Source: an uncultured Bacteroidota bacterium
GTDB lineage: Bacteria > CLD3 > SB21
Length of the DNA stretch: 64,000 nt
Reading direction: 5' to 3'
Assembly: GCA_964535295.1 (NCBI GenBank)
Contig: CAZHUW010000001.1
Coordinates: forward strand, 677 to 64,676
Shown here: piece after piece, positions 4,389 to 57,929 of the stretch
Layout of the letters: the number at the start of each line of letters is the position of its first letter
Numbering within the stretch: position 1 is the first letter of the stretch
The notes under the pieces: generated by a model
What the model was told of the DNA's origin: nothing
The model's database searches: none
What the model saw: the letters and a program-made list of their open reading frames with translations, nothing else
Translations under genes and position numbers: made by a program

Positions 4389-4423
4389 AAAGCTGCCGTA
4401 AACCATCCGTTCACAGCAGCTTT
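4389..4423. terminator. Weak hairpin between the convergent GH15 and cNMP/REC genes.
   Basis: AAAGCTGC (4389-4396) pairs with GCAGCTTT (4416-4423). The loop is 19 nt. Short A and T runs flank it. Confidence 0.35.
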
Positions 4424-4444: not shown

Positions 4445-5542
4445 CTACGGGATCATTTTTTCTACCGTCTCCGCCATATGGTTGACATCCTGTGAATCCA
4501 CCATGGCAGAATTTGTCACGGTCTTCAGCTGATTGACGACCGCGGCATCGGTATTGGAATCGGTGATAAAAATGAACGGGATGTCCTGATAGGAAGAATT
4601 CTCTCGGATCTGCTGGCAAAAATCGTAACCCGAGATCTCATCGTATTTAAAATCAGAAATGATCACATTCGGTTTCAGTGTACGCAGTGCCGATATACCT
4701 TCCGTGATACTGTCGACCGTTTTAACGGTATGGCCGAGGCCGGTAAGATTTTTTTCGATCACTTTGCGAACGACCATGCTGTGATTGATCACCAAGACCG
4801 AACCCGTTTTTTTTGACGCTTTTTCACTTTCTGCGGGCTTGGCCTCCTCCCCGTCAAACGAGATGATCTTGGGTTTGATGATAAATTGACCGTCTTCCCA
4901 GCTCATCATCTGATCGAGGGCTTCATCATCGTTGAAATCCCTGAGTTTGATATTTTGCAGAACCCCTTTTTCGTAGGTAATGACCGCCGTGTCGCTTCCG
5001 TGGGTCACCTCAAGGCTTCCGGTCAGAGAATTGGATTCGCAGAACGCAATGACTTCCGTAATATGTTTGTCTTTAAGGCTTCCTGAAGGACCCGCCGGCG
5101 CCGCCGATTTCATCTGCTTCGCTTTTTCAGAGACCACGGTATTCGTCTCGCGCAAACGCTGGCTCATGATCTTGCTCATGGCGATCGAGATCGACGGATA
5201 TTTCTCCAGGATCACATCAAAATCATCTTTTTCGAGCACGAAGGTCTCCGTATCCTCGGCCGCATTGACCGTTGCGGATCGCGGTTCCCCGGTCAATAAA
5301 GACATCTCTCCGAAGTAATTGCCGGCGCCGATATGCGCCAGAACTTCATTGTTAGCGGCCATAACGGCAACTTTGCCGCTGAGTACGATATACATTTTAT
5401 CGCCCGGATCCCCGACCTTGCAGATGGTACTGTTGGACTTGAATTGTTTGAATTTCAGTTTTTCTGTGATAAAGTCAATACTATCGCGGCCCAGAGAGCG
5501 GAAAAAAGGTACTTGTTTGAGAATCTCGCCAATTTGAATCAT
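4445..5542 (-). CDS. Multidomain signalling protein: N-terminal cyclic-nucleotide-binding domain, central DUF4388/PATAN-like domain, C-terminal atypical (pseudo-)receiver domain.
   Basis: cNMP signature ...YFGEMSLLTGEPRSATVNA. The C-terminal CheY-like fold has the phospho-Asp (IISDF) and the Thr (FITDS), but the acidic pair reads NH (VLVINHS) and there is no KP motif. GGAGG SD lies 6 nt upstream of the ATG at 5542. Confidence 0.8.
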   Translation of the reverse strand: MIQIGEILKQVPFFRSLGRDSIDFITEKLKFKQFKSNSTICKVGDPGDKMYIVLSGKVAVMAANNEVLAHIGAGNYFGEMSLLTGEPRSATVNAAEDTETFVLEKDDFDVILEKYPSISIAMSKIMSQRLRETNTVVSEKAKQMKSAAPAGPSGSLKDKHITEVIAFCESNSLTGSLEVTHGSDTAVITYEKGVLQNIKLRDFNDDEALDQMMSWEDGQFIIKPKIISFDGEEAKPAESEKASKKTGSVLVINHSMVVRKVIEKNLTGLGHTVKTVDSITEGISALRTLKPNVIISDFKYDEISGYDFCQQIRENSSYQDIPFIFITDSNTDAAVVNQLKTVTNSAMVDSQDVNHMAETVEKMIP

Positions 5543-5562
5543 TCCATGCCTCCGAAGAGCTC

Positions 5563-5599
5563 AGTTTCAGCCAAAAATTGTTACAAACAAGGTGAAACT
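5563..5599. promoter_or_regulatory. Inverted repeat AGTTTCA-N23-TGAAACT in the leader/promoter zone of the cNMP/REC gene.
   Basis: 7-bp perfect arms at 5563-5569 and 5593-5599, 20-55 nt upstream of the start codon. Confidence 0.25.
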
Positions 5600-5606
5600 A
5601 AGAAAA

Positions 5607-5816
5607 TTAGAAGAAGATAGCAAGTTTTTTTAGGACGTAGACAATGAAGATAATGAGCAGAATAAGAAAGAAAAATCTCTTAGTGAAAGGAAAAGTCACG
5701 GACGTCGACCGCTTGAACCGAATTCGCTGCTTGAGTTTTTCTTCGGGATCCTTCTCCGGCTTATAATATAGCGGCGTATAATCGAAGGTCTTGTGTTTTT
5801 CAGCTTTAAACATCAT
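5607..5816 (-). CDS. Small hypothetical protein with a C-terminal TM helix, translationally coupled to the epimerase gene upstream.
   Basis: 69 aa. Its start overlaps the epimerase stop by 4 nt (ATGA). Charged N-terminal half, hydrophobic C-terminal helix. Confidence 0.35.
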   Translation of the reverse strand: MMFKAEKHKTFDYTPLYYKPEKDPEEKLKQRIRFKRSTSVTFPFTKRFFFLILLIIFIVYVLKKLAIFF

Positions 5817-6835
5817 AGTGATTCCAATATACCGATTCCCGGCTTGTCAGTCAAAATAATTTTTCCGTTTTTAATTTCCATGCCGCTGAACGAGCAGTCG
5901 TCAATAAGCAAATGGCCATCCAGGTCTGCAAAATCGACCAGCGGAGAAATATGTCCTGCCGCAGTAGAACCGATAACAGTCTGGATCATGCAGCCTATCA
6001 TCGTTTTAAGCCCGTTCGCACGTGCAGTTTTGATCATTTGAAGGGCTTCGCTTAAGCCGCCGCATTTATCGAGTTTGATATTGATCCCGTGAAAAGATTC
6101 CCTCAGTAATGGAATATCTGAATCCGTTTTTACGCTTTCGTCGGCAAACAAAGGCAAAGCAGAACGTTGTTTGAGCCAGATCATATCATCGGTATTTTCC
6201 TTAGGCAAAGGCTGTTCGATCAATTCAACCCCTTGCCCGGCCAACCAGTCAATCTTTTTTGCGGCCTCATCTTTGCTCCAGCCTTCATTGACGTCAATAC
6301 GAAGCCTCTTCGATGTAGATTTCCGGATAGTATTAATGATATCGTAATCCCGCTCACCCACCCCCAGCTTGATCTTCAGGATCGGATAAGGTTCCGCTTC
6401 TCTTATTTTTTGCTCGATCATACCCAATTCATCAATGCCGATCGTAAAAGAGGTTACCGGCGTATCAGACATAGATAAACCAAAATATTTATACAACGGG
6501 CTTTGCAATTTTTTCCCGACCCAATCATGCAAAGCCATATCGATTCCCGATCTTGCGGAAAAATTATACGGGAACAACTCCGATAAAGTGTGCATAATTT
6601 CACCGACATTAAACGGATCCTTAAGACGACTAAGAGTTTTGCCGGCTTCGGTCAAACAAGTTAATACGCTCTCCGGCGGTTCGCCATAGTAGCGCGAAGG
6701 CGACGACTCACCGATGCCGGTGATTCCTTCGTGTTCGATACGAATGATGATGACGTCTTTTGAGTCAATTCGGGAATCGGATAGAATGAAAGGGTGGAGG
6801 AGACGCAGTGATCTTAATTTATATATTAAACGCAT
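5813..6835 (-). CDS. Enolase-superfamily dipeptide epimerase (L-Ala-D/L-Glu epimerase-like, MR/MLE family).
   Basis: 340 aa. N-terminal capping domain (IGESSP), then a KxK...D...E...D barrel pattern (KIKLG, IDVNEGW). Size fits the AEE-type epimerases. Confidence 0.7.
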   Translation of the reverse strand: MRLIYKLRSLRLLHPFILSDSRIDSKDVIIIRIEHEGITGIGESSPSRYYGEPPESVLTCLTEAGKTLSRLKDPFNVGEIMHTLSELFPYNFSARSGIDMALHDWVGKKLQSPLYKYFGLSMSDTPVTSFTIGIDELGMIEQKIREAEPYPILKIKLGVGERDYDIINTIRKSTSKRLRIDVNEGWSKDEAAKKIDWLAGQGVELIEQPLPKENTDDMIWLKQRSALPLFADESVKTDSDIPLLRESFHGINIKLDKCGGLSEALQMIKTARANGLKTMIGCMIQTVIGSTAAGHISPLVDFADLDGHLLIDDCSFSGMEIKNGKIILTDKPGIGILESL

Positions 6836-8675: not shown

Positions 8676-10484
8676 TTATTTGAATACCTTTATAATACCT
8701 TCTTTTATCGCCGTTGCTGCCTTTTTTTGAAATTTAGGATCAACGATCATCTTTTCCTGATCGGGCAGGGATAAAAAAGCGCATTCCACCAAAACAGCGG
8801 GCATTCGTGCATTGCGGCACACGGCCATATTGCCTTGAAAGATGCCGAAGTCAGGAAGTTTCGTTCGTTTGACCATCGCCTCTTGGATCGATTCCGCCAG
8901 CTTCTTGCTTTGCGGATGATAGTAGATCACTGACGGCCCCAACGCCTGGCTGAAGGGATTAACTCCGTCAGGCGGCGCATTGTGATGGATACTGATGAAA
9001 AGGTCGCACTGATTCCGGTTAGCAATTTCAACCCGATCATAAAGCGATAGATCCGCTGTTGTATCCGGATGCGTCATGATGACGGTCGCGCCGCCGGATT
9101 CAAGTTCTTTTTTCAAAACCAATGCAACTTCCACATTTGCCTGACGTTCCGTTATACCGCGTGGCCCTGTCGCTCCGATATCTTTAGAATGTCCGGGATC
9201 GATACAGATTTTTAAACCGCGCAACCCTTTAGCCAATGGTTTGTGCCGGATGGTCCAGATCAAATTAGTCCCGTCATACGCCGCCTCATATCCCCAATGA
9301 TGCGTGTTTTTTAAGTCTACCGTCAGCCGGAATACATCATGTTCCGGTTGAGACCATGTTACATTTGATATTTCCGGGTTGTCGTTTTCAAAACGAATCC
9401 AGTCAACATCGCTGATCCCGCCGTATAAAAACAACTGTAATTGCCGCTCGCCGGTTTGTTCGACTCTAAACGGGATCCGCTCCGACATGAATAACCTGAT
9501 AACGCTTTTCTGTCCATCCTTCTTTACGCGGATAACCGGTATAAATGAGCGGGGAACGGCCGTACCTGATGGAAGATAAGCAAGGTTCTTTTCGGGAAGC
9601 CAAGCCGCATGCCCGGATGATAATTTTAAGCGAATTTGATCGCCCATCGAACCGTCAACGGCGCTTCGGACTCCTTTTGGAAGAAAATAATAATAAGCCC
9701 TGCCCGGATCCACGGTCGCATTATTTATCTCAGCGGTCAATTCAACAGCGCGCATATCCTCATCGTTCCAAGATGTCAGTTTTGCATTCGAAACGGCCTG
9801 CGCGGTATCCCCGTTCTTTATGACTGTGAACCGAATCGAAGCGTTGTTCAGTTTTTCCTTCATGAAAAAATTTGCGGTAAATATGCCGGGAACCCGCGCG
9901 CGTTTGGTCTTTTTACCGATCCCAAATACCGATTCACCGAAATTATCCATCAGGTCCGGCTCGGCTTCCGCCATCGCCTGATCCGATTCAATGATAACCC
10001 CATCAGAATTTATAACAGAATAAAAAACCTTTGCTCCCGGCGTCGCGCGGCATTTTAGATGAATCCGGTCACCTGAACGCAAACTGATCGGAATGTTAGG
10101 AAAAAGATAATTTGAATCTATCGCAGCTGTCGCTGAGTCGAGCGCCGGCAAGGGGATTGGAATGATAACCTTTTTTTCGTACAAGTATACTGAGTCTTTA
10201 GCGATGATTTTACATTTCAATACAAAGGTTGAATCGGCGTTTATCTTCAACGGATCGATTCCCACAAAACCGATAAATGCACCGTCATGTGATGCTGCAA
10301 CGAACTGATCGTTGATATAGAGCTTTGAATTGGGAATACGGATCTGACCAAGAACGAGCAGGGAGTCTGTAGTGCTCAACAAAATATTCGAACGAGGATA
10401 GACCAGGCTTATTGGACGATCCTGCGCATACAATGAAAAGAGACCGACGGTGAAAATTAACCCCATCGGTATATATGTAGACAT
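8676..10484 (-). CDS. N-acetylmuramoyl-L-alanine amidase with a C-terminal Amidase_3 domain and a large N-terminal domain.
   Basis: The C-terminal region (KICIDPGHSKDIGATGP...SIHHNA) matches the Amidase_3 zinc-amidase fold. N-terminal signal/TM. Confidence 0.75.
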   Translation of the reverse strand: MSTYIPMGLIFTVGLFSLYAQDRPISLVYPRSNILLSTTDSLLVLGQIRIPNSKLYINDQFVAASHDGAFIGFVGIDPLKINADSTFVLKCKIIAKDSVYLYEKKVIIPIPLPALDSATAAIDSNYLFPNIPISLRSGDRIHLKCRATPGAKVFYSVINSDGVIIESDQAMAEAEPDLMDNFGESVFGIGKKTKRARVPGIFTANFFMKEKLNNASIRFTVIKNGDTAQAVSNAKLTSWNDEDMRAVELTAEINNATVDPGRAYYYFLPKGVRSAVDGSMGDQIRLKLSSGHAAWLPEKNLAYLPSGTAVPRSFIPVIRVKKDGQKSVIRLFMSERIPFRVEQTGERQLQLFLYGGISDVDWIRFENDNPEISNVTWSQPEHDVFRLTVDLKNTHHWGYEAAYDGTNLIWTIRHKPLAKGLRGLKICIDPGHSKDIGATGPRGITERQANVEVALVLKKELESGGATVIMTHPDTTADLSLYDRVEIANRNQCDLFISIHHNAPPDGVNPFSQALGPSVIYYHPQSKKLAESIQEAMVKRTKLPDFGIFQGNMAVCRNARMPAVLVECAFLSLPDQEKMIVDPKFQKKAATAIKEGIIKVFK

Positions 10485-11077: not shown

Positions 11078-11136
11078 GACTATAAATGGACATCAGCGAC
11101 TGATGGCAGGATAGAGAGTTGGGTTTCCGTGATTAG

Positions 11137-11949
11137 TCACATCGCCGGCAGAATTGTTTTGATCAATACTTTCATGTTTTTCGGCATTTCCGGACGTCCT
11201 CCCATCAACATGCCGCCTGCAGGCATTCTTCCTCCCCCCATCCCGCCCGGTATCTGTCCGCCAAAATCCGGTTTTTTAAACTCACCCGTTTCCAACCAGA
11301 TACTGACCGGCTTCCCGGATGCCGCATTGATGGCAAAAGGAATATTATCAGAAGATCTCAAAGGAACTTTTAACTCGTAGAACATACCGTCTTTCTGATG
11401 AGTAAGTTTTACAGCAATGCCGGTCAATTCGTATAAGGTCAGTCTCGTCCGGTCTAATTCACCGGGACCAATGATCTCCACTTCATTTAATTGTTTTTTT
11501 GTTCTTTCGTCAAAATGTGCACCAATTTCCTGACGACCATCAGGAGGCAGCATTGGCATACCGCCGCTCCCTCCAATAGGATACCGTATACCTAGAATCT
11601 TGTTTCCAGTTCCGGCAGAATCAAACCACACCGTAAAACCCATGGTCAAGATCTGCATGGCAACGCTTCGGTCGAGCGGCGCAATACCCAAATAAATAAA
11701 ATCCTTGTCAGAGGCGATGCCAACGGCCATTTTTGCATCTCTAATGATTTCCATTTTATTCTTTTCCCATTCATCGTCCATTCCGTCTATCTTTATACTG
11801 CTTTCGTTCCAATAACTGATCATTGAGACAGGGTGAGAGCATCCTGTATTTAATTCAATTAACAGGACCAAGAATCCAAGAGCCACCGGCTTCGCTATTT
11901 TCATTGCCTTCTCCGCTTTTTTGATCAACAAAATCTGATCATTAGACAT
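11137..11949 (-). CDS. Hypothetical lipoprotein with a Gly/Met-rich C-terminal tail.
   Basis: Signal peptide with a lipobox-like LNTGC. C-terminal low-complexity GGQIPGGMGGGRMPAGGMLMGGRPEMP. Confidence 0.5.
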   Translation of the reverse strand: MSNDQILLIKKAEKAMKIAKPVALGFLVLLIELNTGCSHPVSMISYWNESSIKIDGMDDEWEKNKMEIIRDAKMAVGIASDKDFIYLGIAPLDRSVAMQILTMGFTVWFDSAGTGNKILGIRYPIGGSGGMPMLPPDGRQEIGAHFDERTKKQLNEVEIIGPGELDRTRLTLYELTGIAVKLTHQKDGMFYELKVPLRSSDNIPFAINAASGKPVSIWLETGEFKKPDFGGQIPGGMGGGRMPAGGMLMGGRPEMPKNMKVLIKTILPAM

Positions 11950-12033
11950 GAATTACTGAAAAAAGTTGAATAAGATAGTAAAAAAAAAAGCGAAGTGGGG
12001 ATCTTCGCTTTTAAATTTCACCATATCAAAACA

Positions 12034-12990
12034 TTACTCTTCTAACTTTGACTTTGCTTCGTCTGCCTGTGAACCGTTTGGAACCAAAGCCAAATAGCGC
12101 CGGTAATGATCCTTCGCTTCCTGTTTCATATTCTTCTTCTCACAACATTTGGCCAGATTAAATACGGATGGAGCAAATTTGGGATCGGTGATAATGGCCT
12201 TCCTGTAACTTTCAATCGCTTCATCTATTTGATCGTTAGCCAAATACCCGTCACCAAGACTGTCATAGGCGTTCGCGTTGCCCGGATCGTATTCGACCAT
12301 TTTTTTGAAATGCTGTATCGCTTCCTCATATCGTTTTTGTTTCAGATACAAGTAGCCAAGCCGGTGATGGGACCCTGGCTTTTTGGGTTCAACCGAAATG
12401 GCTTTCTTATAATATTCTTCGGCAGCACTCGGGTCGTCCTCTTGGTCATATACAAAAGCAAAGCCCATGTAACCGCGATACGCATTCAATTTCAAAAGCG
12501 CTGCTGCCTGTAATTTCGCCTTGTCTTTACTGCCGCCCATGATACCGGGCGCCATGACGTAGAACTGCAGTAAGCCGTTTCTGGCATCGGGATTATTCGG
12601 ATCGAGTTCAACGGCCTTCTCCAGTTCACTTTTGATCCTCGGTGCCAGCAGCGCTTGTTTAATGACATTGCTCTGCATGGCCTTTGCACCCAAGGCGCTT
12701 GACAGAATCAAATGATATTGGGCGTTGTTTGGATCTGCATCTATCGCTTTTTCGAGGTATTCAACGGCCTTATCTACATCTCTTTCGAACCTGAGATAGA
12801 TCGATCCTACATAGTAATTCGCCTCCGCATGATAGCTTGATTTAGCCAATAAGCTCTCAAAGATGCTCTTGGCTTCTGAAAATTTGCCGTCATTAAATAA
12901 TTGACGGCCGCGCTCAAGCTCGGTCTGTGCTTGCAGGCTTGGGATCATTATGGACAAACTCAGGGCAAGATAACACAATACAACTTTCAT
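12034..12990 (-). CDS. Secreted TPR-repeat protein.
   Basis: 318 aa. Signal peptide, then multiple TPR units. Confidence 0.7.
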   Translation of the reverse strand: MKVVLCYLALSLSIMIPSLQAQTELERGRQLFNDGKFSEAKSIFESLLAKSSYHAEANYYVGSIYLRFERDVDKAVEYLEKAIDADPNNAQYHLILSSALGAKAMQSNVIKQALLAPRIKSELEKAVELDPNNPDARNGLLQFYVMAPGIMGGSKDKAKLQAAALLKLNAYRGYMGFAFVYDQEDDPSAAEEYYKKAISVEPKKPGSHHRLGYLYLKQKRYEEAIQHFKKMVEYDPGNANAYDSLGDGYLANDQIDEAIESYRKAIITDPKFAPSVFNLAKCCEKKNMKQEAKDHYRRYLALVPNGSQADEAKSKLEE

Positions 12991-22345: not shown

Positions 22346-22386
22346 CAAAAACGCCCCGGTTCATTGCCGGGGCGTTTTTTATTTTA
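22346..22386. terminator. Bidirectional intrinsic terminator.
   Basis: 10-bp GC-rich stem AACGCCCCGG (22350-22359) / CCGGGGCGTT (22367-22376) with a 7-nt loop. Flanked by an A-run and a T-run. Sits between the convergent small ORF and the S41 peptidase gene. Confidence 0.75.
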
Positions 22387-23958
22387 TTTTTTCGTTCCTG
22401 CCTCTGCGAATTTTTTCGCTTCCGGAAAATATTTAACGGCTTCTTTAATGACAGGGTCGGCCTTCAATCGAACCTGGGCCGACTCATTGAGGCTCCAAAT
22501 GTAACGGGCCAGTTCTCCTTTGATCACATTTTTCATATCCTCTTTGTCTTTTTCCAATGCTTTTTCGTCCGCTGCAACCCCTTTCTGTATTCCCAATTGG
22601 ATCAACGATTGAAATTCTGTTTCGGAAATCTCATATGATGAGAAGAATTTCTTATAATTTTCCTTATACTGATTCCGCAGAGCCGGTCCGTTCTTCTCAA
22701 GAAACTTATTCACAAATTCTCTAAAAACGCCTTTGCTCCAAAGCTTCGCATAATAGACGGTGAACGTATCGTTGTCAATGTGATAATCCGGCACAATGCC
22801 GCCGCCGCCGAAGACTTTTCGTCCCATCGCCGTGTAAAATACTTTGGTTGAGTCGGTATGCAGCGTGTCATTCAAATGCGCTTCACCGTAATAATCTTCG
22901 ATAGATTTTCCGTTATACGGACGTTGAATAAGCCTTCCGCTTGGTGTGTAATAACGCGCGGTGGTAATGCGTACCGCCGAACCGTCATTAAGATCGTATT
23001 GCGACTGAACCAGTCCTTTGCCGAAAGTTCGCTCACCTACAACAAGTGCGCGATCCAGATCCTGCAACGCCCCGGCTACGATCTCGGAGGCCGATGCGGA
23101 ATACCGGTTCACCAGAACAATAAGCGGTATCTTCCGATGTGAAAGCTTGGATGTAGAGGTATATTCTTTGGAAGAATTGCCAATACGCCCTTTGGTATAA
23201 ACGATCATTTTGCCGGCCGGCAAAAATTTATCCACAATCATTTCAGCTTGCTCCAAATAGCCACCACCATTGTTCCTCAGGTCAAGTATCAATTGCTTCA
23301 TTCCCGCGGCCTGAAGTTCCAGCAAGGCTTGTTCGATCTCATTCTCTGAAGTTTCAGCAAATTTATTCAGCCGAATAAACCCCGTCTGGTCATCCAGCAT
23401 GAACTTGGCGTCTACAGTGAAAATCGGTATCTTATCGCGAACAATATCAAATTCCAGTAATTCGCTGACGCCGGGCCGTTCTATGGTTACGTGTACTGTC
23501 GTTCCTTTCGGCCCTTTGAGCCTTTTAAAAACATCTTCCGTCGTAATATCCTTGGCAGGACTACGGTCAATTTGAACAATCTTATCACCGGCAAGAATTC
23601 CCGCCCGGTCCGACGGCGTTCCCGGTATAGGCGAAACGACCGTAAGATATCCGTTGACGATCTCAAATGAAATGCCGATGCCTTCAAAATTTCCCTGAAA
23701 CTCCTCTTTGACCTGCTTCATTTCTTTAGGCGGAATATACACAGAATGAGGATCAAGTCCTTTGAGCGCTCCTACAATAGCGTCGTCGATCAGCTTATTG
23801 GCATCCACATCTTCCACATAAGTTTTTTCGATTACATCCAGAACGCCTCGCAGTTTACCCGAACTCTGCATCGCCTGTTTACCGGTCTGCATAAACCCGG
23901 TAATAACCGCAATGACCACCACCACAAATAACGCAGGCATGATAATTCGTTTGTTCAT
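22384..23958 (-). CDS. S41-family C-terminal processing (tail-specific) peptidase.
   Basis: 524 aa. N-terminal TM, PDZ domain (GTPSDRAGILAGDKIVQID) and the S41 catalytic domain. Confidence 0.85.
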   Translation of the reverse strand: MNKRIIMPALFVVVVIAVITGFMQTGKQAMQSSGKLRGVLDVIEKTYVEDVDANKLIDDAIVGALKGLDPHSVYIPPKEMKQVKEEFQGNFEGIGISFEIVNGYLTVVSPIPGTPSDRAGILAGDKIVQIDRSPAKDITTEDVFKRLKGPKGTTVHVTIERPGVSELLEFDIVRDKIPIFTVDAKFMLDDQTGFIRLNKFAETSENEIEQALLELQAAGMKQLILDLRNNGGGYLEQAEMIVDKFLPAGKMIVYTKGRIGNSSKEYTSTSKLSHRKIPLIVLVNRYSASASEIVAGALQDLDRALVVGERTFGKGLVQSQYDLNDGSAVRITTARYYTPSGRLIQRPYNGKSIEDYYGEAHLNDTLHTDSTKVFYTAMGRKVFGGGGIVPDYHIDNDTFTVYYAKLWSKGVFREFVNKFLEKNGPALRNQYKENYKKFFSSYEISETEFQSLIQLGIQKGVAADEKALEKDKEDMKNVIKGELARYIWSLNESAQVRLKADPVIKEAVKYFPEAKKFAEAGTKK

Positions 23959-23994
23959 AGCATCTCCTTTATCATATATGCACCATACTATTTT

Positions 23995-25572
23995 TTATTT
24001 GCTTTTCAGGCGGGTATCTGTAAATTTTTTTGCCTGAGGAAAATACGTCATCGCCTGTTTCAAAGCCGGGTCATTCTGGAATCGTATCTGAGAGGCCTCA
24101 AAACTGGTCCAGATATACCGCGCCACTTCCGCTTTGACGAGGTTCTTCATCAGTTCCTTATCGGTATTGACTGCGCTCTGATCGATCGGGATACCTTTCT
24201 GCACACCAATATTGAGCATCTCCTGAACATCCGAATCGGTAAAATCAAAGGACTTGCTGAATTGAACGAATTTTGATTTATATTCCTCGCGCAGCTTCGG
24301 CCCGTTCTTTTCAAGATAATTATTGGTGAACTCCCGGAAAACGCCTTTTCCCCAAAGTTTGATATAATAAGCCGTAACCGTATCATTGTCGGTGATCCTG
24401 TAATCCGGTACGATACCGCCGCCGCCGTAGACTTTGCGGCCAACGGAAGTATAAAATACTTTGGATGTATCCGTCTGAAGCGTATCGTTAAGGCGCGCCT
24501 CTCCGTAATAATCCTCCAGCGATTTATGATCGTAGGGACGCTGTATCAAACGGCCGCTGGGCGTGTAATAACGCGCAATAGTAATACGAACGGCGGAGCC
24601 GTCATTGAGATCAAATTGATTTTGAACCAATCCTTTTCCAAAACTACGTTCACCCACAACCAAACCGCGGTCCAGATCCTGAATAGCTCCGGCCACGATC
24701 TCCGACGCCGAGGCCGATCCGCGATTGATCAGTACCACGACCGGGTAATCTCTATACGACTTCTTCTCTGTGGAATAAAATTCCTGGGTAGCTCCCGGAA
24801 TGCGCCCTTTCATGTAAACGATCATTTTACCGCCGGGAATAAATTTATCCACGATCATTTTCGCTTCTTCCAAAATACCGCCCCCGTTATTCCGCATATC
24901 CAGAATAAGTTGCTTCATACCTTTGCCTTCAAGCTCCGTCAGCGCCTGTTCGATCTCTTCTGATGTTGTCTCGGCAAAACGCACAAATCGAATATAACCC
25001 GTTTTATCATCCAACATAAACTTTGCGTCCACGCTGTACACCGGGATCTTATCGCGGATAATATCAAATTCCAATAATTCGTCCAAGCCGGCCCGCTGTA
25101 TGCTGATATGAACGACGGTCCCTTTCGGGCCGCGGAGTTTTGAAACGGCTTCTTCAGTCGTGATGCCTTTGGTGGGAACGTTATTGATCATCATGACCTT
25201 ATCGCCACCCTGAATACCGATCTTCTCCGAAGGACTGCCCGGGATAGGTGTGACAATGGTAAGTTGCCCGTTGATCACATCGATCTGGCTTCCGATCCCT
25301 TCGAAATTACCTTTGAATTCTTCTTTGACCTGTTTCAGTTCTTTTGGGGGAATATAAACGGAATGAGGACCGAGGCTTTTTAGAACCCCGACGATGGCAT
25401 CATCCACTAGTTTGTCCCCATCTACATCTTCAACATACGTTCTAGAAATAAGGTCAAGAACCGTGTTCAGCTTAACGATGTTCTTATAAGCGTTTTGGCC
25501 AACATTTGAAAAGCCCGTCACCGCAATAACGGCTAAAAGAACCAGCAAAGAAAGTCCGATCTTTTTCTTCAT
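23995..25572 (-). CDS. S41-family C-terminal processing peptidase (tandem paralog).
   Basis: 525 aa, colinear with and highly similar to the neighbouring S41 protein. Confidence 0.85.
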   Translation of the reverse strand: MKKKIGLSLLVLLAVIAVTGFSNVGQNAYKNIVKLNTVLDLISRTYVEDVDGDKLVDDAIVGVLKSLGPHSVYIPPKELKQVKEEFKGNFEGIGSQIDVINGQLTIVTPIPGSPSEKIGIQGGDKVMMINNVPTKGITTEEAVSKLRGPKGTVVHISIQRAGLDELLEFDIIRDKIPVYSVDAKFMLDDKTGYIRFVRFAETTSEEIEQALTELEGKGMKQLILDMRNNGGGILEEAKMIVDKFIPGGKMIVYMKGRIPGATQEFYSTEKKSYRDYPVVVLINRGSASASEIVAGAIQDLDRGLVVGERSFGKGLVQNQFDLNDGSAVRITIARYYTPSGRLIQRPYDHKSLEDYYGEARLNDTLQTDTSKVFYTSVGRKVYGGGGIVPDYRITDNDTVTAYYIKLWGKGVFREFTNNYLEKNGPKLREEYKSKFVQFSKSFDFTDSDVQEMLNIGVQKGIPIDQSAVNTDKELMKNLVKAEVARYIWTSFEASQIRFQNDPALKQAMTYFPQAKKFTDTRLKSK

Positions 25573-31561: not shown

Positions 31562-31903
31562 TTACTTTGTTTTTTTATCAGAAGGATAATCTTGCTGCAA
31601 TTTTTCAACGGCCAAGCCGTTCAGGAGACGCTCATCGACTTCAATTTCATCGACGATACCGATAACGGCCGCCTCGATGGATAATTCATTGGGTGTGTCG
31701 GTTATGGCACGCCGGGCTGCGTGCCCGTAGGAGCATATAACCAATTCCCCGATTCCGGCACCAAGCGTGTCCGCCACCACCACCACATTTGTATTCGGCG
31801 CTTTATCAATATTTACTGGATGAATCATGAGGAATCGGAGCGATTTGACATTATCCACTTTTTTTGTGGCCCAAACCGTTCCAACAACGCGTCCGATGAA
31901 CAT
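31562..31903 (-). CDS. EutN/CcmL/PduN-family bacterial-microcompartment vertex (BMC-P) protein homolog. Solitary within this window.
   Basis: 113 aa. GTVWATKKVDNVKSLRFLMIH...VVADTLGAGIGELVICSYGHAARRA...IEAAVIGIVDEI aligns block-for-block with CcmL/EutN. ~20-residue charged C-terminal extension. Confidence 0.75.
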   Translation of the reverse strand: MFIGRVVGTVWATKKVDNVKSLRFLMIHPVNIDKAPNTNVVVVADTLGAGIGELVICSYGHAARRAITDTPNELSIEAAVIGIVDEIEVDERLLNGLAVEKLQQDYPSDKKTK

Positions 31904-36225: not shown

Positions 36226-36633
36226 TCAGAAGTAGATCTCTTTTTTGGCTATCATGGCCTGCAGACGGTCGGATTCTTCCAGCGATTTTTTCACAAATTC
36301 ATTGGTCTTGGTCTTATCCTCGCCGAGAACTACCAAGAAGGCATCCGAGAGCAATTGCGTCAGAACAAAGACCCTTTTGGCGCCAACGGTTACCGTAGTT
36401 TGTATATCTTCGCGCATGCCGTCGGACGAGGTCGATGCCGGAACCGAAAAGATCCTTTTCCCGTGATCGAGAAATACCGATGCAAACGAACCGAGCTGAG
36501 CCTCCGCATCATCGTCTTTGACATTGGAGTGCAGGGCCAGTCCATCGGAAGAAATGATCACCACGGATGTTCCGGGAGCGATCTTTTCAAGGTGTGTGAT
36601 GGTCTGATCAAAAAATTCTTTATGAGAGATCAT
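36226..36633 (-). CDS. Roadblock/LC7 (MglB-like) domain protein.
   Basis: 135 aa with the alpha-beta-beta-alpha-beta pattern (VVIISSDGLALHSN...). Weaker match than its neighbour. Confidence 0.5.
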   Translation of the reverse strand: MISHKEFFDQTITHLEKIAPGTSVVIISSDGLALHSNVKDDDAEAQLGSFASVFLDHGKRIFSVPASTSSDGMREDIQTTVTVGAKRVFVLTQLLSDAFLVVLGEDKTKTNEFVKKSLEESDRLQAMIAKKEIYF

Positions 36634-36645
36634 GGCTTACCTTCG

Positions 36646-36996
36646 CTAATTCACGTGTGATTTGAGTTCTTTCATGGCGCAGCTGATATCATAAAGGACG
36701 AGCCCCAGCTTGGCACTGGTGGTGGTAAAAACGGTCAGCAGCGTATCTTTGCCGGCGCGGGTAATGATGATAAAACCTTCCTTACCACGGATGGAGATCT
36801 GCGACATTTCGCCAAGCATGGCGTCCTCGGCGCTGGTCTCGCCCTGATTGATCAAGGCCGCCGAGATCGCGGCGACGCGTTCATCTTCAATATTATCGGG
36901 AAGAAGGGAAGCGATGATGAGACCGTCGTTGCTCACCAACGCGACGGCGCTCACACCGGGTGTATCGTTTCTTAAGCGCTTGAGGATTTCTTCCAT
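36646..36996 (-). CDS. Roadblock/LC7 (MglB-like) domain protein.
   Basis: 116 aa. VSAVALVSNDGLIIASLLPD...GFIIITRAGKDTLLTVFT is a typical Roadblock fold signature. Confidence 0.65.
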   Translation of the reverse strand: MEEILKRLRNDTPGVSAVALVSNDGLIIASLLPDNIEDERVAAISAALINQGETSAEDAMLGEMSQISIRGKEGFIIITRAGKDTLLTVFTTTSAKLGLVLYDISCAMKELKSHVN

Positions 36997-37118
36997 TGTC
37001 CACCTGTTATAATGAGTTTAACCGAGGGAGAGATATGATTTTGAATGGGGCAAATTAAAGAGAAAATCGAATAAAGTCAACGTACAAAAACCGGTATTGG
37101 GTCAGAGGAAGTCGTGCG

Positions 37119-37484
37119 TCAGGCGTCGGCTTCACGGTAACTCTGGACGGCAGAATCCAGATCGTCATAAAATTCGAACACCCGGTCGAGTTTGGCGATC
37201 TCAAACATTTTGGAGACTTTTTCGTGCGCTCCGATGATACGCAGGTCCCCGTCTTCGGCATTGAATATCCTCCGCCCGAGCAGAAGGGACCCCAGGCCGG
37301 AACTATCGATAAAATCCACAGCCGAGAGATCGACCACGACTTCATGAATACCTGCGTCCTTCATTTTTAAAAATTCCTGTTTGTACAAGTGGGATATCCG
37401 GCTGTCCATGCGCGCATCTTTGATGTGCATGACCGTTACTTCATTGACATCCTCTTCTGTAAAATTGATCTGCTTTTCTTCCAT
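37119..37484 (-). CDS. STAS-domain anti-sigma-factor antagonist (SpoIIAA-like).
   Basis: 121 aa. VDLSAVDFIDSSGLGSLL carries the conserved phosphorylatable Ser in the DSSG motif. Confidence 0.8.
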   Translation of the reverse strand: MEEKQINFTEEDVNEVTVMHIKDARMDSRISHLYKQEFLKMKDAGIHEVVVDLSAVDFIDSSGLGSLLLGRRIFNAEDGDLRIIGAHEKVSKMFEIAKLDRVFEFYDDLDSAVQSYREADA

Positions 37485-40314: not shown

Positions 40315-43300
40315 GTGATTCGGATTTTCTTCAAATCGTTCGTGGCATTCGTCTTTCTTCTTTTTTCAAGAACGGCCGCGTTTGCTCAAACTACCCTCGA
40401 ATTTGACCAATGGACGACTGCGCACGGACTATCTCAGGTCAGCGTATTTGCCATGATGCAGGACCGCGAAGGATATCTATGGTTCGCCACGGAGAACGGC
40501 CTCAATCAATTCGACGGATATCAGTTCACCCATTACACCCATTCTCTTTTTGATTCCAATTCCCTCTCCGATCAACTGGTCTACACCATGATCGAGGACA
40601 ATGATGGGATCATGTGGATCGCCTGTTTCGGAGGCGGACTGAACCGCTTTGACCGGCGTACAGGACAATTCATCCACTACCGCCACGATCCGAAGAATCC
40701 GGTATCGATCAGCAGTGATTTCGTAACCACGCTTTACATCTCTCCCTCTGATCCGAAAACGCTATGGATCGGTACCGACCGCGGCGGGCTGAACCGGATG
40801 GATATGGCCGCAGGTACATTCACACGTTTTATGAATAAAACCGGCGATTCAACCTCGTTGTGCAATGACCGAATCTACGCCCTCAGCGGCGATGAACTCG
40901 GCAACATCTGGGCCGGTACACGCAGCGGGCTCGCGCGGCTTGATATACTAAAAATGGCCTTTACCAATTTTTTTGCAGATCCGAAAAGCGCCAATTCTAT
41001 CAGCCACAATGAGATCTGGCATATTTTCAAAGATCGCGACGGGCTATTATGGATATCCTCTACCGGCGGCCTGACGCGCTGCGATCCGAAAGGCCTGCAA
41101 TTCAAAGTCTATCGCCACGACGCGGCCAATACTAAGTCCCTTCCTCATCAAAAGGTCTGGGCATCCTGCGACGACAGCCGCATCCATAATGAATTCCTCT
41201 GGGTTGGCACCAATCAAGGCCTTGCCCGCATGAATAAACAGACCGGCGAATGTACCGTCTTTCAGCACGAGGATGGCAACCCCCGTAGTATCGGCCACAA
41301 TCAGGTATGGGCATTGTACAACGACCGGCAGGATAATATCTGGATCGGCAGTTTCGGCGGCGGCGTTAACCGTATCAATCGTTCCAAAGAAAAATTCAAT
41401 CACTACCATAACATCGCTTCAGATCCTAATTCTATCCGTCACAATGAAATGTGGTCTCTGTATGAAGATCATAGCGGAAATATATGGGCCGGACACCGCA
41501 AAGGGATCGACGTTTTGAGTTCCGGCGGCAAACGCATCTTATCCATTGACAACGAGAACGGCAATGAGAGCTCTCTTAAGATCAAAGGTACGCGTGTTCA
41601 GGCTGTCACTGAAGATACCGACGGTAACATGTGGTTCGGAACGGACGGCGCGGGGTTATATCGTTTTGATCCGCGTAATAAAAGGATGACCCATTTCCAA
41701 AATAATGATAAAGATTCCTCCAGTTTAAGCCACGATTTCGTTTCTTATATTTATGAGAGTAAGCATGCCGGTGAACGCAGCCTATGGATCTGCACGAACG
41801 GCGGCCTTAACCGGTTTGATCCACGTACCAACAGGTTTACCAGATATAAAACCGATCCTAATAACCCAAAAAGCATCAGCCATGACCGCGTGCGTTTTAT
41901 CACTGAAGACCGGCAGGGAACTATGTGGATTGGCACGTACGGCGGCATCGATAAGTTTGATCAGGTAACCGGCATCTTCACTCATCACGCGCATGATCCG
42001 GAAACAGAAGGTTCCCTCAGCGAAAACAGGGTATGGGTCATTCATGAAGCCACCGATGGGACGTTGTGGGTCGGCACGCATATCGGCCTCAACCGAATGG
42101 ACAAAACAACCGGCCGCTTCACGGTATTCACGGTACGCGAAGGCTTGCCGAGCAATGAGATCTACGGCATTTGCGAGGACGGTTCCGGTAATCTTTGGAT
42201 GAGTACGAGCCGGGGCTTGAGCAAACTGGATCCCCGAACAGAACGATTCACGAATTATTTCGAGGACGACGGGCTGCAAAGCAATGAATTCAACGGCGCG
42301 GTGTTCGCACAGGGACGCAGCGGGCATATGTACTTTGGCGGTATCAATGGTTTCACCGCGTTTGATCCCAAGAACGTAGTTCCGGAGAACGATCCGCCGC
42401 CGGTCATACTCTCCACGTTCAGAAAATTCGATCAGCCTGTATTGAAAGACCGCGCCTTGAACAAATTGTCTGAGATCGAACTCTCTTATGCGGATAATTT
42501 TTTCGGATTTGAATTCTCCACGCTCAATTACCACAATGTAGCGAAAAACCAATACCGTTATCGTCTCGAAGGATTCGATCCGGACTGGATCGCGAGCGGG
42601 AACCGCCGTTACGCAACGTATACCAATCTTGATCCGGGTAATTACCGCTTCCACGTAACGGCAGCCAATAGCGACGGCGTTTGGAATCCGGAAGGCGTTG
42701 TGATCAACGTCCGCATTCTTCCTCCCTGGTGGCAAACATGGTGGTTCCGTTTGCTCGCCGCATCGGCATTGATCGGGCTTATGTTCACCGTCTACCGTAT
42801 CCGCGTGGAAAGGCTTCTCGCGATCGAACGCATGCGCACGCGCATCGCCAGCGACCTCCACGACGATATCGGCGCCACGCTCACCCGTATTGCCGTGGGA
42901 TCGGAAATGATACAGAATTCCAGTGACGGTGAAAAAATAAAATCCCAGGCAGGGCGAATCGGAGAACTCAGCCGTGAAGTGATCCGCACCTTCAGTGATG
43001 TAATATGGTCCATTGATGCCCGAAACGATTCACTGGGCGACCTCGTCGCGCGATTACAGGATACGGCTTATCAGGTTTTATCTGCCAAAGAGATCGCGTT
43101 CACACTGGAACCGCGCGGCTTACAAGACGACAAGGCCCTACAAGTGGATATCCGGCAGAATCTTTATCTTATCTGCAAGGAAGCACTCAACAATATTGCA
43201 AAACATTCCGGCGCCAATATGGTCTCCCTCGTTTTCGAACAGACCGGAGGAGAACTCACTATCACGATCCGGGACAACGGACGCGGCTTGCCTGAAAAAA

Positions 43301-43419
43301 CTCGTGAACAAGGTAACGGGTTGCGTAATATGCGATTACGCGGAGAAAGAATTAACGCAAGCATTTCATGGAAAAACGATAACGGCTGTATCATGGAATT
43401 ACGTTGCCCGATCAGCTGA
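40315..43419 (+). CDS. Sensor histidine kinase with periplasmic two-component-regulator propeller (Reg_prop) repeats and a Y_Y_Y domain, a TM helix, HisKA_3 and HATPase_c domains.
   Basis: Many ~45-aa repeats (G.W.GT..GL..FD....F) characteristic of Reg_prop. TM WWFRLLAASALIGLMF. H-box IASDLHDDIG. G-boxes near the C-terminus. No receiver domain. Confidence 0.9.
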   Translation: MIRIFFKSFVAFVFLLFSRTAAFAQTTLEFDQWTTAHGLSQVSVFAMMQDREGYLWFATENGLNQFDGYQFTHYTHSLFDSNSLSDQLVYTMIEDNDGIMWIACFGGGLNRFDRRTGQFIHYRHDPKNPVSISSDFVTTLYISPSDPKTLWIGTDRGGLNRMDMAAGTFTRFMNKTGDSTSLCNDRIYALSGDELGNIWAGTRSGLARLDILKMAFTNFFADPKSANSISHNEIWHIFKDRDGLLWISSTGGLTRCDPKGLQFKVYRHDAANTKSLPHQKVWASCDDSRIHNEFLWVGTNQGLARMNKQTGECTVFQHEDGNPRSIGHNQVWALYNDRQDNIWIGSFGGGVNRINRSKEKFNHYHNIASDPNSIRHNEMWSLYEDHSGNIWAGHRKGIDVLSSGGKRILSIDNENGNESSLKIKGTRVQAVTEDTDGNMWFGTDGAGLYRFDPRNKRMTHFQNNDKDSSSLSHDFVSYIYESKHAGERSLWICTNGGLNRFDPRTNRFTRYKTDPNNPKSISHDRVRFITEDRQGTMWIGTYGGIDKFDQVTGIFTHHAHDPETEGSLSENRVWVIHEATDGTLWVGTHIGLNRMDKTTGRFTVFTVREGLPSNEIYGICEDGSGNLWMSTSRGLSKLDPRTERFTNYFEDDGLQSNEFNGAVFAQGRSGHMYFGGINGFTAFDPKNVVPENDPPPVILSTFRKFDQPVLKDRALNKLSEIELSYADNFFGFEFSTLNYHNVAKNQYRYRLEGFDPDWIASGNRRYATYTNLDPGNYRFHVTAANSDGVWNPEGVVINVRILPPWWQTWWFRLLAASALIGLMFTVYRIRVERLLAIERMRTRIASDLHDDIGATLTRIAVGSEMIQNSSDGEKIKSQAGRIGELSREVIRTFSDVIWSIDARNDSLGDLVARLQDTAYQVLSAKEIAFTLEPRGLQDDKALQVDIRQNLYLICKEALNNIAKHSGANMVSLVFEQTGGELTITIRDNGRGLPEKTREQGNGLRNMRLRGERINASISWKNDNGCIMELRCPIS

Positions 43420-43474
43420 AGCCCCATTGATATGGGATTGTATGATACCGGACAGAGAATTACATTAAACTATT

Positions 43475-44122
43475 ATGAAAAGTAAAAATACCCCTATACG
43501 TACCGCCATTGTCGAAGACGATGCGGAAATTCGCGGCAATGTTTCTGATTACCTCAAAAATCAGGATCGGTTCGATCTGCAATTCAGTGCCGGTTCCATG
43601 GAAAAAGCGCTTGATGAGTTAAAGAAGAAAAAGATCCCGGATGTACTGCTCCTCGACATCGGCCTTCCGGGTATGTCAGGGCTCAACGGCATTAAGCTCG
43701 TCAAAGAACTTTATCCCGATTGCGACATCATAATGTTCACGGTTCATGACGATCCCAACAGAATTTTCGAGGCGTTGTGTAACGGGGCCTCGGGTTATCT
43801 TCTGAAAAACACACCGTTTTCCGAGATCAGCCGCGCGATCATGGACCTGTATGCGGGCGGCGCGCCGATGTCGCCGCAGATCGCACGTAAAGTGATCCAG
43901 CATTTTAATCCGAGAGCCAAACCGGCACATGTTTCTCCTCTGTCCGATAAGGAACGTGAAGTCGTGGTCGGCCTGGTGGACGGGCTCAGTTACAAAATGA
44001 TAGCCGACCGCCTAGACATTACGATCGAGACCGTTCGCTCACACATCAAGAATATCTACCGAAAACTGCACGTACATTCCAAAGCCGAAGTCATTACCAA
44101 ATCGCTCAAAGGCGAGATATAG
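43475..44122 (+). CDS. NarL/LuxR-family response regulator (REC + LuxR-type HTH).
   Basis: REC with VEDD...LLLDIGLP (phospho-Asp)...FTVH. C-terminal LuxR HTH (EREVVVGLVDGLSYKMIADRLDITIETVRSHIKNIYRKL). Confidence 0.9.
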   Translation: MKSKNTPIRTAIVEDDAEIRGNVSDYLKNQDRFDLQFSAGSMEKALDELKKKKIPDVLLLDIGLPGMSGLNGIKLVKELYPDCDIIMFTVHDDPNRIFEALCNGASGYLLKNTPFSEISRAIMDLYAGGAPMSPQIARKVIQHFNPRAKPAHVSPLSDKEREVVVGLVDGLSYKMIADRLDITIETVRSHIKNIYRKLHVHSKAEVITKSLKGEI

Positions 44123-44350: not shown

Positions 44351-45461
44351 ATGATCGAAATCTCCAACATCACTGCACGACTGGAACAAGCCCGCGAAAA
44401 ACTCTCCGACCTTCGGAGGTTTCTTTGACCTCGCTCAAAGAGAAGAAAAAATATCCAATTTAGAAGCCCAAACCACCGTCGCCGATTTCTGGAATAATAA
44501 CCAGCGAGCACAACAGATCATGCAGGAGATTTCATCAGAAAAATCCTGGGTTGAAGGTTGGAAAAAACTTGACGTGCAGTGCGAAGACCTTCACATGCTT
44601 CTCGAAATTGCCGAAGAAGAAAACGATGAGGCCACTCTAAAATCCATTGATTCCGAGTTGACTGAACTCGGCAAGGAGTTATCGAAACTAGAGCTTCGCG
44701 CCTATTTCACGAACCCGGAAGATACCAAAACAGCGGTGCTTACCATTCATCCCGGAGCCGGAGGAACGGAATCCCAGGATTGGGCCGAAATGCTCATGCG
44801 CATGTATCAGCGCTGGGGCGTTAACCGAGGAATGCACGTACAAATACTCGATATTCTTGACGGCGAAGGGGCAGGTATTAAAAGCGTTACCATGGAATTT
44901 ACCGGTGAATTTGCATATGGTCTCTTAAAATGTGAAAGCGGAGTTCATCGTCTGGTAAGAATCTCGCCTTTCGACTCTAACGCACGGCGACACACGTCTT
45001 TTGCCTCCGTATTCGCCATGCCGGAATTGGATGAGGTCGAAGCAAAGATTGAGATCAATCCGTCGGACCTGAAAGTTGATACTTACAGGTCAGGCGGGAA
45101 AGGCGGACAAAACGTTAACAAAGTCGAGACTGCAGTTCGTTTTACCCATATTCCCACCGGGATTGTTGTGGCCTGCCAGAGCGAACGATCACAATTCAAA
45201 AACCGCGAAATTGCGATGAAACTGCTTATTTCTAAATTATATCAGTTGCAAAAACGGAATGAACAGGAAAAGCTTGACAAGATCGAAGCAACAAAATCAG
45301 ACATTGCCTGGGGAAATCAAATCCGATCCTACGTATTACATCCGTATAATCTCGTAAAAGACCATCGTACCGAGATGGAGACAAGCAATACGCAGGCCGT
45401 ACTTGGCGGTGATATTGACATGTTCATTGAAGCCTGTTTAAAAAATAAAATTGTTTCATAA
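44351..45461 (+). CDS. prfB: Peptide chain release factor 2, requiring a programmed +1 ribosomal frameshift at 44423-44429 (CTT TGA C).
   Basis: ORF1 ([25 protein letters not shown]) ends at in-frame TGA 44426-44428. The +1 frame continues [15 protein letters not shown]...SPF...GGQNVN (GGQ motif) to 45461. An internal SD-like GGAGG lies 3 nt upstream of the CTTTGAC shift site, as in E. coli prfB. Confidence 0.85.
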
Positions 45462-57785: not shown

Positions 57786-57929
57786 ATGAACTCAGAGATA
57801 CTAAATATTCTTCTGATTTTTATAGGCCTGGTCGGTTTTACGTTTATGATCTATATCAGCCGCAGCCAACGTAAAAAGATCGGCGAGCGTAAAAACAAGA
57901 TCAAAAACGCCTGGAGAGACCGGTTGTGA
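57786..57929 (+). CDS. Candidate 47-aa single-TM peptide (MNSEILNILLIFIGLVGFTFMIYISRSQRKKIGERKNKIKNAWRDRL). Its stop overlaps the GTG start of the phosphatase gene.
   Basis: Open frame below the 60-aa cutoff. One hydrophobic helix then a Lys/Arg-rich tail. TGA 57927-57929 overlaps GTG 57926-57928. The SD is weak. Confidence 0.3.
   Translation: MNSEILNILLIFIGLVGFTFMIYISRSQRKKIGERKNKIKNAWRDRL

Follow-up and report, generated by a model that had tools for sequence, protein, structure and literature searches.

How does a protein with a receiver domain take its input when the receiver lacks the acidic residues that coordinate magnesium, and a cyclic-nucleotide-binding domain stands at its other end? 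This question is raised by an open reading frame (ORF) at positions 4445–5542 on the minus strand of a 64,000-nt stretch of DNA from an uncultured Bacteroidota bacterium (the window, to which all window counts and coordinates below refer). The ORF, which encodes a protein of 365 aa (hereafter the receptor), lies exactly where an earlier note, made from the sequence alone, had placed a PatA-like protein gated by a cyclic nucleotide (cNMP). We judge it somewhat better than an even chance that the receptor is a soluble PATAN adaptor gated by a cNMP, its pseudo-receiver having a structural role, which acts together with a membrane partner and whose output is protein-protein contact, not DNA binding or phosphotransfer. 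The candidate partner is encoded by a small gene directly upstream, and the linkage of the two genes is conserved in nearly all related species.

Domain architecture and the cyclic-nucleotide site

The architecture proposed in the earlier note, a cNMP-binding domain, a DUF4388/PATAN domain and a receiver, was borne out, with all three domains over their Pfam gathering scores. cNMP_binding was matched at residues 32–115 (81.5 bits against a gathering score of 27.5), DUF4388/PatA_N (PATAN, PF14332) at residues 153–228 (27.3 bits against 25, E = 4e-6, profile positions 1–98 of 122), and Response_reg at residues 249–341 (45.9 bits against 30.2, profile positions 1–91 of 111). The DUF4388 match is borderline for the query alone; of the 120 best homologs, however, 112 have a precomputed PF14332 match. 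The parts of the receptor, with boundaries drawn from Pfam, the alignment and the AlphaFold2 (AF2) model, are listed below; pLDDT is the predicted local distance difference test score.

5108–5542, minus strand: cyclic-nucleotide-binding (CNB) domain (beta-barrel with the phosphate-binding cassette FGEMSLLTGEPRSATV) and long C-helix, residues 1–145 (Pfam)
4859–5095, minus strand: compact PATAN (DUF4388/PatA_N), order beta-alpha-beta-beta-beta-alpha-beta, without an alpha-helical insertion, residues 150–228
4817–4858, minus strand: acidic and lysine-rich disordered linker of family-variable length, residues 229–242 (pLDDT <50; alignment columns mostly gaps)
4448–4807, minus strand: receiver with a complete (beta-alpha)5 fold and the degenerate pocket N253, H254, D297, K299, T327 and D349, residues 246–365

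The phosphate-binding cassette, which occupies residues 77–92 and contains the motif quoted in the earlier note, is intact, and its residues G78, E79, R88, S89 and A90 are invariant across an alignment of 110 sequences. Both the profile score and the beta-barrel fold place the domain in PF00027, as do the Gly-Glu (for the ribose 2'-OH) and the Arg-Ser/Thr-Ala (for the phosphate) of the cassette. The family profile matches the regulatory domains of PKA and PKG with E-values of 1e-30 to 1e-60. The CNB part of the model can be superimposed on the CNB domains of HCN2 and MloK1 at 1.5–2.5 Å over ~128 residues, and the top Foldseek matches for this part were CRP and GlxR. It is followed by a C-helix of 30 residues (116–145), which carries a strongly conserved SQRLRET segment. 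Taken from sequence and model together, the receptor is predicted to hold an intact cNMP ligand site, with cAMP or cGMP as the predicted ligand.

NCBIfam contains no family-level model for the receptor and gave only domain-level matches far under their cut-offs. The best of these was CRP (residues 20–140, 60 bits against a cut-off of 266), which covers only the CNB domain and the C-helix. No helix-turn-helix (HTH) or other output domain was found in the receptor with Pfam or NCBIfam, and the reading of the receptor as a CRP-like transcription factor was dropped because it has no HTH domain.

In the central domain, 76 residues span profile positions 1–98 of PF14332, and the model shows five strands and two helices only. 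Foldseek with the whole model returned matches to CNB domains only, and a PDB sequence search with the PATAN and receiver segment matched through the receiver only. The 86-aa PATAN segment used alone as a homolog query gave no match, the word index being too coarse for it.

Family and distribution

The receptor had 1348 matches in a large protein database. Almost all of the best 120 of these 1348 are 357–372 aa long and contain the same three domains, and these 120 are labelled only 'cyclic nucleotide-binding domain-containing protein' or similar. When one genome was scanned for each GTDB species, full-length members were found in 62 species, outside which the match was restricted to the CNB domain. 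Ten of the 62 species form the clade of the query, all of them metagenome-assembled genomes labelled Bacteroidota or 'bacterium', with 65–88% identity; ~52 are Calditrichota, with 37–48% identity to the query. The literature searched contained no relevant paper on a cNMP-PATAN regulator or on PATAN together with cyclic-nucleotide binding. The family is unnamed and is best grouped with the PatA-type/PATAN signalling proteins, as a form in which the receiver is degenerate and a cNMP sensor is fused on.

In ~28 Calditrichota loci a paralog of ~375 aa, with cNMP_binding and DUF4388 domains (PF14332 at 25.0 bits), lies immediately downstream of the receptor gene, for example at 11098–12222 in locus L001 and 9091–10221 in locus L004. 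No receiver or other Pfam domain was matched in its C-terminal ~120 residues. A CRP-like regulator gene is found upstream in subsets of the Calditrichota loci. Within the query clade, none of the paralog, the CRP-like regulator and a GAF-HisKA-HATPase kinase, the last of which is taken up below, adjoins the receptor gene.

A receiver pocket degenerate across the family

Aligned to H. pylori CheY1 (PDB 3gwg), the receiver has N253-H254 at the acidic pair of CheY (D12/D13), leaving no acidic residue at either position. D297 aligns to the phospho-acceptor Asp at the end of beta3, T327 to the conserved beta4 Thr, and D349-S350 occupy the position of the beta5 Lys-Pro, so the Lys is absent. BLASTP against E. 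coli CheY gave the same correspondence for N253-H254, D297 and T327. The description in the earlier note, with VLVINHS at residues 249–255, Asp and Thr retained, Asn-His in place of the acidic pair and no Lys-Pro, thus agrees with the alignment at every position.

We then counted these positions in a set of 120 sequences, the query and 119 full-length relatives. In 119 of 120 the acidic pair has given way to Asn or Ser at the first position and Asn, His or Gln at the second. At the beta4 position, Thr occurs in 78 sequences, Ala in 28 and Ser in 12. Members of the query clade (27 sequences at at least 61% identity) follow the pattern N-[H/Q] ... T ... [D/E/Q]. The beta5 Lys is kept in most Calditrichota relatives and is replaced by Asp, Glu or Gln in 27 of 27 query-clade members; its loss is specific to that clade.

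Because the acidic pair is replaced across the family, the degeneracy of the pocket is an ancient, conserved family property and not the decay of one gene. As judged from its residues, the receiver pocket would be incompatible with canonical Mg-dependent phosphorylation. For PatA-type proteins, the loss of the second Asp alone has been held to make phosphorylation unlikely (bioRxiv 10.1101/2021.06.11.447907). With the acidic pair lost in nearly every member and the cNMP cassette invariant, the suggestion of a pseudo-receiver whose protein takes its input from a cyclic nucleotide and not from phosphorylation gained support.

A small membrane protein encoded upstream

The conserved neighbour of the receptor gene, which the earlier note missed, is the gene of a 69-aa membrane protein immediately upstream. 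The elements of this two-gene stretch that accompany the receptor gene are as follows, in the order of transcription; HMM stands for hidden Markov model.

5826–5854, minus strand: sigma-70-like promoter candidate, TTGACT, 17-nt spacer and TATATT, 10/12 match (identified by consensus only)
5607–5816, minus strand: small partner ORF of 69 aa with an N-terminal basic motif and one C-terminal transmembrane (TM) helix (from the ORF, the HMM and relatives)
5543–5606, minus strand: intergenic spacer of 64 nt, with a GGAGG ribosome-binding site (RBS) a few nt before the ATG at 5542 (read from the sequence)
4389–4423, minus strand: strong intrinsic terminator, 15-bp stem (6 G-C pairs) and T-run, starting 22 nt past the stop codon (from the sequence)

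The promoter candidate sits just upstream of the small ORF, within the 3' end of an epimerase gene. The 2.8-kb region contains seven promoter-like sites where 4.5 would be expected, which makes the site weak evidence on its own. Together, the promoter-like site, the RBS and the terminator bracket exactly the small ORF and the receptor gene, which are predicted to form a promoter-to-terminator bicistron. Since the start of the small ORF overlaps the stop of the epimerase gene by 4 nt, read-through into the small ORF from upstream is possible.

The same arrangement was found in the relatives, where the receptor gene is directly preceded by an ORF of 66–69 aa in contexts that are otherwise different. 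Comparing the 62 species-level receptor loci, we found the small ORF on the same strand upstream of the receptor gene in 60, the two genes being separated by 21 nt at the median. An HMM derived from five of the relatives' upstream ORFs matched 59 of the 62 loci and the window. Of the three misses, one is truncated where its contig stops, with the C-terminal TM segment still present, and the remaining two (L032 and L040) are close relatives of each other with no small ORF within 400 nt. The HMM found no small ORF in 18 loci that match the CNB domain only. When every ORF of 90 aa or more in 63 receptor loci was clustered without bias, no neighbour other than the small ORF was common to more than 22 of the 63.

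The consensus of the small protein consists of KHRxFxYxPRhYxPE, a variable stretch, RIxFxRLxR+, a basic stretch and one hydrophobic helix. It is predicted to be a single-pass membrane protein, and its conserved N-terminal part would face the cytoplasm because basic residues flank the helix. The small ORF belongs to no Pfam family, and a word-indexed search with it retrieved six near relatives only. A full HMMER scan of 1.84 billion representatives (cut-off E <= 1e-3) gave 238 small-protein clusters, including a class of 84–95 aa with a tail after the helix.

To see where distant members are encoded, we looked up the contexts of six of them, taken from 50%-identity clusters. For four of the six (P0249, P0182, P0240 and P0171), the next gene downstream on the same strand encodes a membrane class III cyclase with HAMP and Guanylate_cyc domains. 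These cyclases are orthologous, 35–42% identical to each other, and are found at 3749–5662 in L090, 4001–6024 in L098, 1597–3082 in L097 and 369–1155 in L095. A divergent MazG gene often lies upstream of the small-protein gene in these loci, and a gene for a large tetratricopeptide-repeat (TPR) protein follows. The other two members have unrelated genes downstream, MTHFR (L093) and a convergent MoxR ATPase gene (L096). That members of the small-protein family accompany a cNMP-producing enzyme in some lineages and the receptor in others is, given the small sample, a lead rather than a result.

A working model and its alternatives

In the mechanism that we favour, cAMP or cGMP would first bind to the N-terminal CNB domain, whose site looks intact by sequence and in the model. 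By analogy with CRP, PKA and HCN, the ligand would then reposition the C-helix and its SQRLRET segment. This movement would shift the exposure or orientation of the compact PATAN, the presumed effector surface if the cyanobacterial PatA-type proteins are a guide. Because the acidic pair is lost family-wide and the beta5 Lys is lost in the query clade, the receiver would most likely be a non-phosphorylated module serving in structure, dimerisation or docking. The 69-aa protein, whose genomic linkage to the receptor is observed, would interact physically with the receptor as its membrane-side partner or anchor. Such tethering at the membrane would be consistent with the cyanobacterial PatA-type regulators, which are described in the literature as membrane-localised. 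The relatives encoded upstream of HAMP/class III cyclase genes would place the small protein in cNMP signalling generally, which we regard as a lead.

As for the target of the PATAN domain, the PilB/PilC motor of the type IV pilus is our best guess, made by analogy; Caldithrix abyssi has a pilus cluster (PMC5317091). A broader proposal is that the small protein and its downstream gene, be it for a cyclase or for the receptor, constitute an unrecognised cNMP module of Calditrichota and allied bacteria. In it the small protein would act as a membrane hub that localises or regulates cNMP signalling, and PATAN would pass the signal on to machinery at the cell surface, for instance the type IV pilus. 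We consider this proposal unlikely.

Several observations weigh against the favoured mechanism. D297 is kept in 119 of 120 sequences and K299 in all 120, which is unexpected for a purely structural pocket. This near-invariance leaves room for residual phosphorylation or another ligand, while the D297/K299 pair itself hints at a salt bridge or a site of interaction that has been conserved. The inter-domain arrangement in the AF2 model is not confident (predicted template-modelling score, pTM, 0.45), so the allosteric path is conjecture. The association of the small protein with cyclases comes from six sampled contexts only, and a search for cyclase homologs came up empty both for the window and for the flanks (within 6 kb) at the 62 receptor loci. 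No MglA-type GTPase, pilus genes or cyclase emerged from the Pfam scans either, which took in nearly every sizeable ORF of the window. The small ORF follows an MR_MLE epimerase gene outside the receptor family as well (L093), and its position in the window may partly reflect inherited synteny and not function. Finally, some relatives have a histidine-kinase gene a few kb upstream of the receptor gene: ~15 Calditrichota loci carry one of the GAF-HisKA-HATPase type, and 5 of the 10 query-clade loci one of the REC-HisKA-HATPase type, ~3 kb upstream, though the latter is absent from the window.

Among the alternatives, the one that survives best, unlikely in our judgement, is that the receptor is a stand-alone cNMP-regulated adaptor and the small ORF a mere positional neighbour, the receptor gene having been inserted beside a widespread membrane-protein gene. 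The small-protein family is indeed broader than the receptor family, as its 238 clusters attest, and it can precede genes as unrelated as those for MTHFR and the convergent MoxR ATPase. The order of epimerase gene and small ORF outside the receptor family and the two loci with a receptor and no small ORF nearby fit this explanation as well. It accounts poorly, however, for a linkage that holds in 60 of 62 species under two phylum-level labels and down to 37–48% identity while the other neighbours change, or for the tight same-strand spacing. The pairing of the small-protein family with a cNMP-producing enzyme elsewhere, which is independent of the receptor, also speaks against mere proximity.

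Distinctly unlikely, in our view, is a two-input response regulator, in which D297 would still be phosphorylated by a histidine kinase in a non-canonical pocket and the cNMP would modulate the same PATAN output. Such a regulator would explain why D297 is retained, why Thr or Ser stands at the beta4 position in 90 of 120 sequences and why the beta5 Lys persists in most Calditrichota, and the complete receiver fold of the model and the kinase genes within a few kb in subsets of the loci would suit it. Nevertheless, 119 of 120 members have kept neither of the acidic residues that coordinate Mg, and the query clade lacks the beta5 Lys in addition. General knowledge of CheY-type receivers and the published criterion for PatA-type proteins (bioRxiv 10.1101/2021.06.11.447907) both make phosphorylation unlikely. 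Kinase genes occur in at most 15–16 of the 63 loci, and none adjoins the receptor gene in the window.

That the CNB-like domain binds another ligand or none, serving as a dimerisation module as in some CRP/FNR members so that the receptor is not gated by a cNMP, is highly unlikely: many CRP/FNR-type domains are known to use different ligands and no cyclase gene is close by in the window or the related loci, but across the family the Gly-Glu and Arg-Ser-Ala that make the ribose and phosphate contacts do not vary, and the best sequence and structure matches are the true cNMP binders PKA, PKG, HCN and MloK1.

The receptor is a domain-shuffled signalling protein assembled from known parts. If the favoured reading of a cNMP-gated PATAN adaptor is correct, a PATAN domain hard-wired to a cNMP sensor, with a small molecule as its input and no kinase involved, would provide a simple system for PATAN switching and binding outside cyanobacteria. 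The small membrane partner, together with the separate pairing of its family with cyclases, would offer a testable handle on cNMP signalling in Calditrichota and their mostly uncultured relatives. This partner and its cyclase link are the most interesting new lead from the locus.

Genomic neighbourhood and the Roadblock pair

In the window, the receptor gene sits among housekeeping genes. Downstream comes a convergent GH15 gene; the genes upstream, all on the strand of the receptor gene, encode an MR_MLE epimerase, an M50 peptidase, RsmI, RnpA and an amidase. Antisense ORFs at 4886–5537 (plus strand), inside the receptor gene, recur at the same position in 20–28 related loci; they were rejected as genes, being shadow ORFs of a conserved coding sequence.

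The earlier note had also linked the receptor gene to a pair of Roadblock genes elsewhere in the window. The pair is real, at 36226–36996 on the minus strand. The ORF at 36646–36996 (116 aa) matches Robl_LC7 with 69.8 bits, and the second ORF at 36226–36633 (135 aa, 21% identical to the first) scores 20.7 bits, under the threshold of 23. A STAS gene (37119–37484, minus strand) lies directly upstream of the pair, and the Roadblock/STAS stretch (36226–37484) is flanked by genes for an oligopeptide ABC ATPase and a cystathionine beta-synthase-like protein.

The proposed link did not hold. The pair is 31 kb away from the receptor gene, with more than 25 unrelated genes between them, and no small GTPase gene, of the MglA type or other, is located next to it. 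In the 653 kb of flanks (within 6 kb) of the 62 species loci, no Roadblock or STAS homologs were found, although a single-sequence phmmer search may miss a very divergent Roadblock. The Roadblock/MglA link was therefore rejected, on the distance of the pair and on the lack of Roadblock homologs near the gene in 62 genomes. MglA/MglB homologs are reported in the literature to be often encoded near PATAN genes, and this general proximity is not seen for the receptor family.

Further features of the window were recorded in passing. A GAF-GAF-SpoIIE (PP2C) phosphatase is encoded at 57926–59695 (plus strand) and, with the STAS gene, makes up partner-switching components; the ORFs scanned in the window included no anti-sigma kinase. 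Within 40315–44122 (plus strand), a large Reg_prop/Y_Y_Y beta-propeller histidine kinase (1034 aa, HisKA_3) is encoded, and after it a response regulator of the NarL type whose receiver is canonical; a separate Reg_prop-only protein of 326 aa is encoded at 51836–52816 (plus strand). The ORF of prfB (release factor 2, RF2) at 44520–45461 (plus strand) starts at position 29 of the Pfam PCRF profile, and a CTTTGAC heptamer lies at 44423–44429 (plus strand), ~90 nt upstream, with its GAC in the frame of the downstream ORF. This arrangement fits a classical +1 programmed frameshift. CTTTGAC occurs 28 times on both strands of the window against 8.75 expected from dinucleotide-preserving shuffles (largest shuffle 17), an excess that may be a codon or composition effect. 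Two tandem paralogous genes for S41 (C-terminal processing, CtpB-like) peptidases of 524 and 525 aa are located at 22384–25572 (minus strand). An isolated EutN/CcmL (microcompartment vertex) gene at 31562–31903 (minus strand) lies between genes for an Omp85/BamA-like protein and a DUF92 membrane protein, and no further microcompartment shell genes were noticed in the window.

Comparison with known systems

To our knowledge, PATAN is a widespread and poorly understood domain without a solved structure, for which one role is known, that of binding the motor of type IV pili in cyanobacteria. The closest counterparts of the receptor are the PatA-type regulators of cyanobacteria (PatA, PixG, PilG, PixE and LsiR), which share with it the order of PATAN followed by a CheY-like receiver, separated here by a disordered linker of 14 residues. 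In these cyanobacterial regulators PATAN alone is the output domain, its binding to PilB1/PilC being known for Synechocystis proteins only, and the orphan regulators PixE and LsiR have been judged phosphorylation-independent, with their input coming from another sensor (bioRxiv 10.1101/2021.06.11.447907). In this respect the receivers of these two orphans resemble the pseudo-receiver proposed here. The differences are considerable. PatA-type proteins have two domains with PATAN at the N-terminus, whereas in the receptor a CNB domain and C-helix of 145 residues come first, which puts PATAN in the interior and makes the sensor part of the protein itself. Their PATAN typically, though not universally, contains an alpha-clip insertion, whereas that of the receptor is compact (~80 residues) and lacks it. 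PatA-type regulators are cyanobacterial, whereas the receptor belongs to Calditrichota and an allied group, where the constant partner is the small membrane-protein gene and no chemotaxis-like or pilus genes are nearby.

The atypical receivers, such as that of FrzS of Myxococcus, keep the fold with a degenerate active site and serve as protein-interaction modules in polarity and motility. The receptor differs from FrzS-type pseudo-receivers in that it keeps the phospho-acceptor Asp and an invariant Lys at D+2, and in its partner domains, CNB and PATAN. The CRP/FNR-type regulators (CRP, GlxR and Clr) resemble the receptor in having a CNB domain followed by a long C-helix; where they carry HTH_Crp_2, however, the receptor has PATAN and the pseudo-receiver. 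The CNB domains of MloK1/HCN and PKA/PKG are alike in fold and in the ligand-contacting residues (~30% identity, root-mean-square deviation 1.5–2.5 Å). These domains gate channels or kinases, whereas the effector in the receptor is PATAN.

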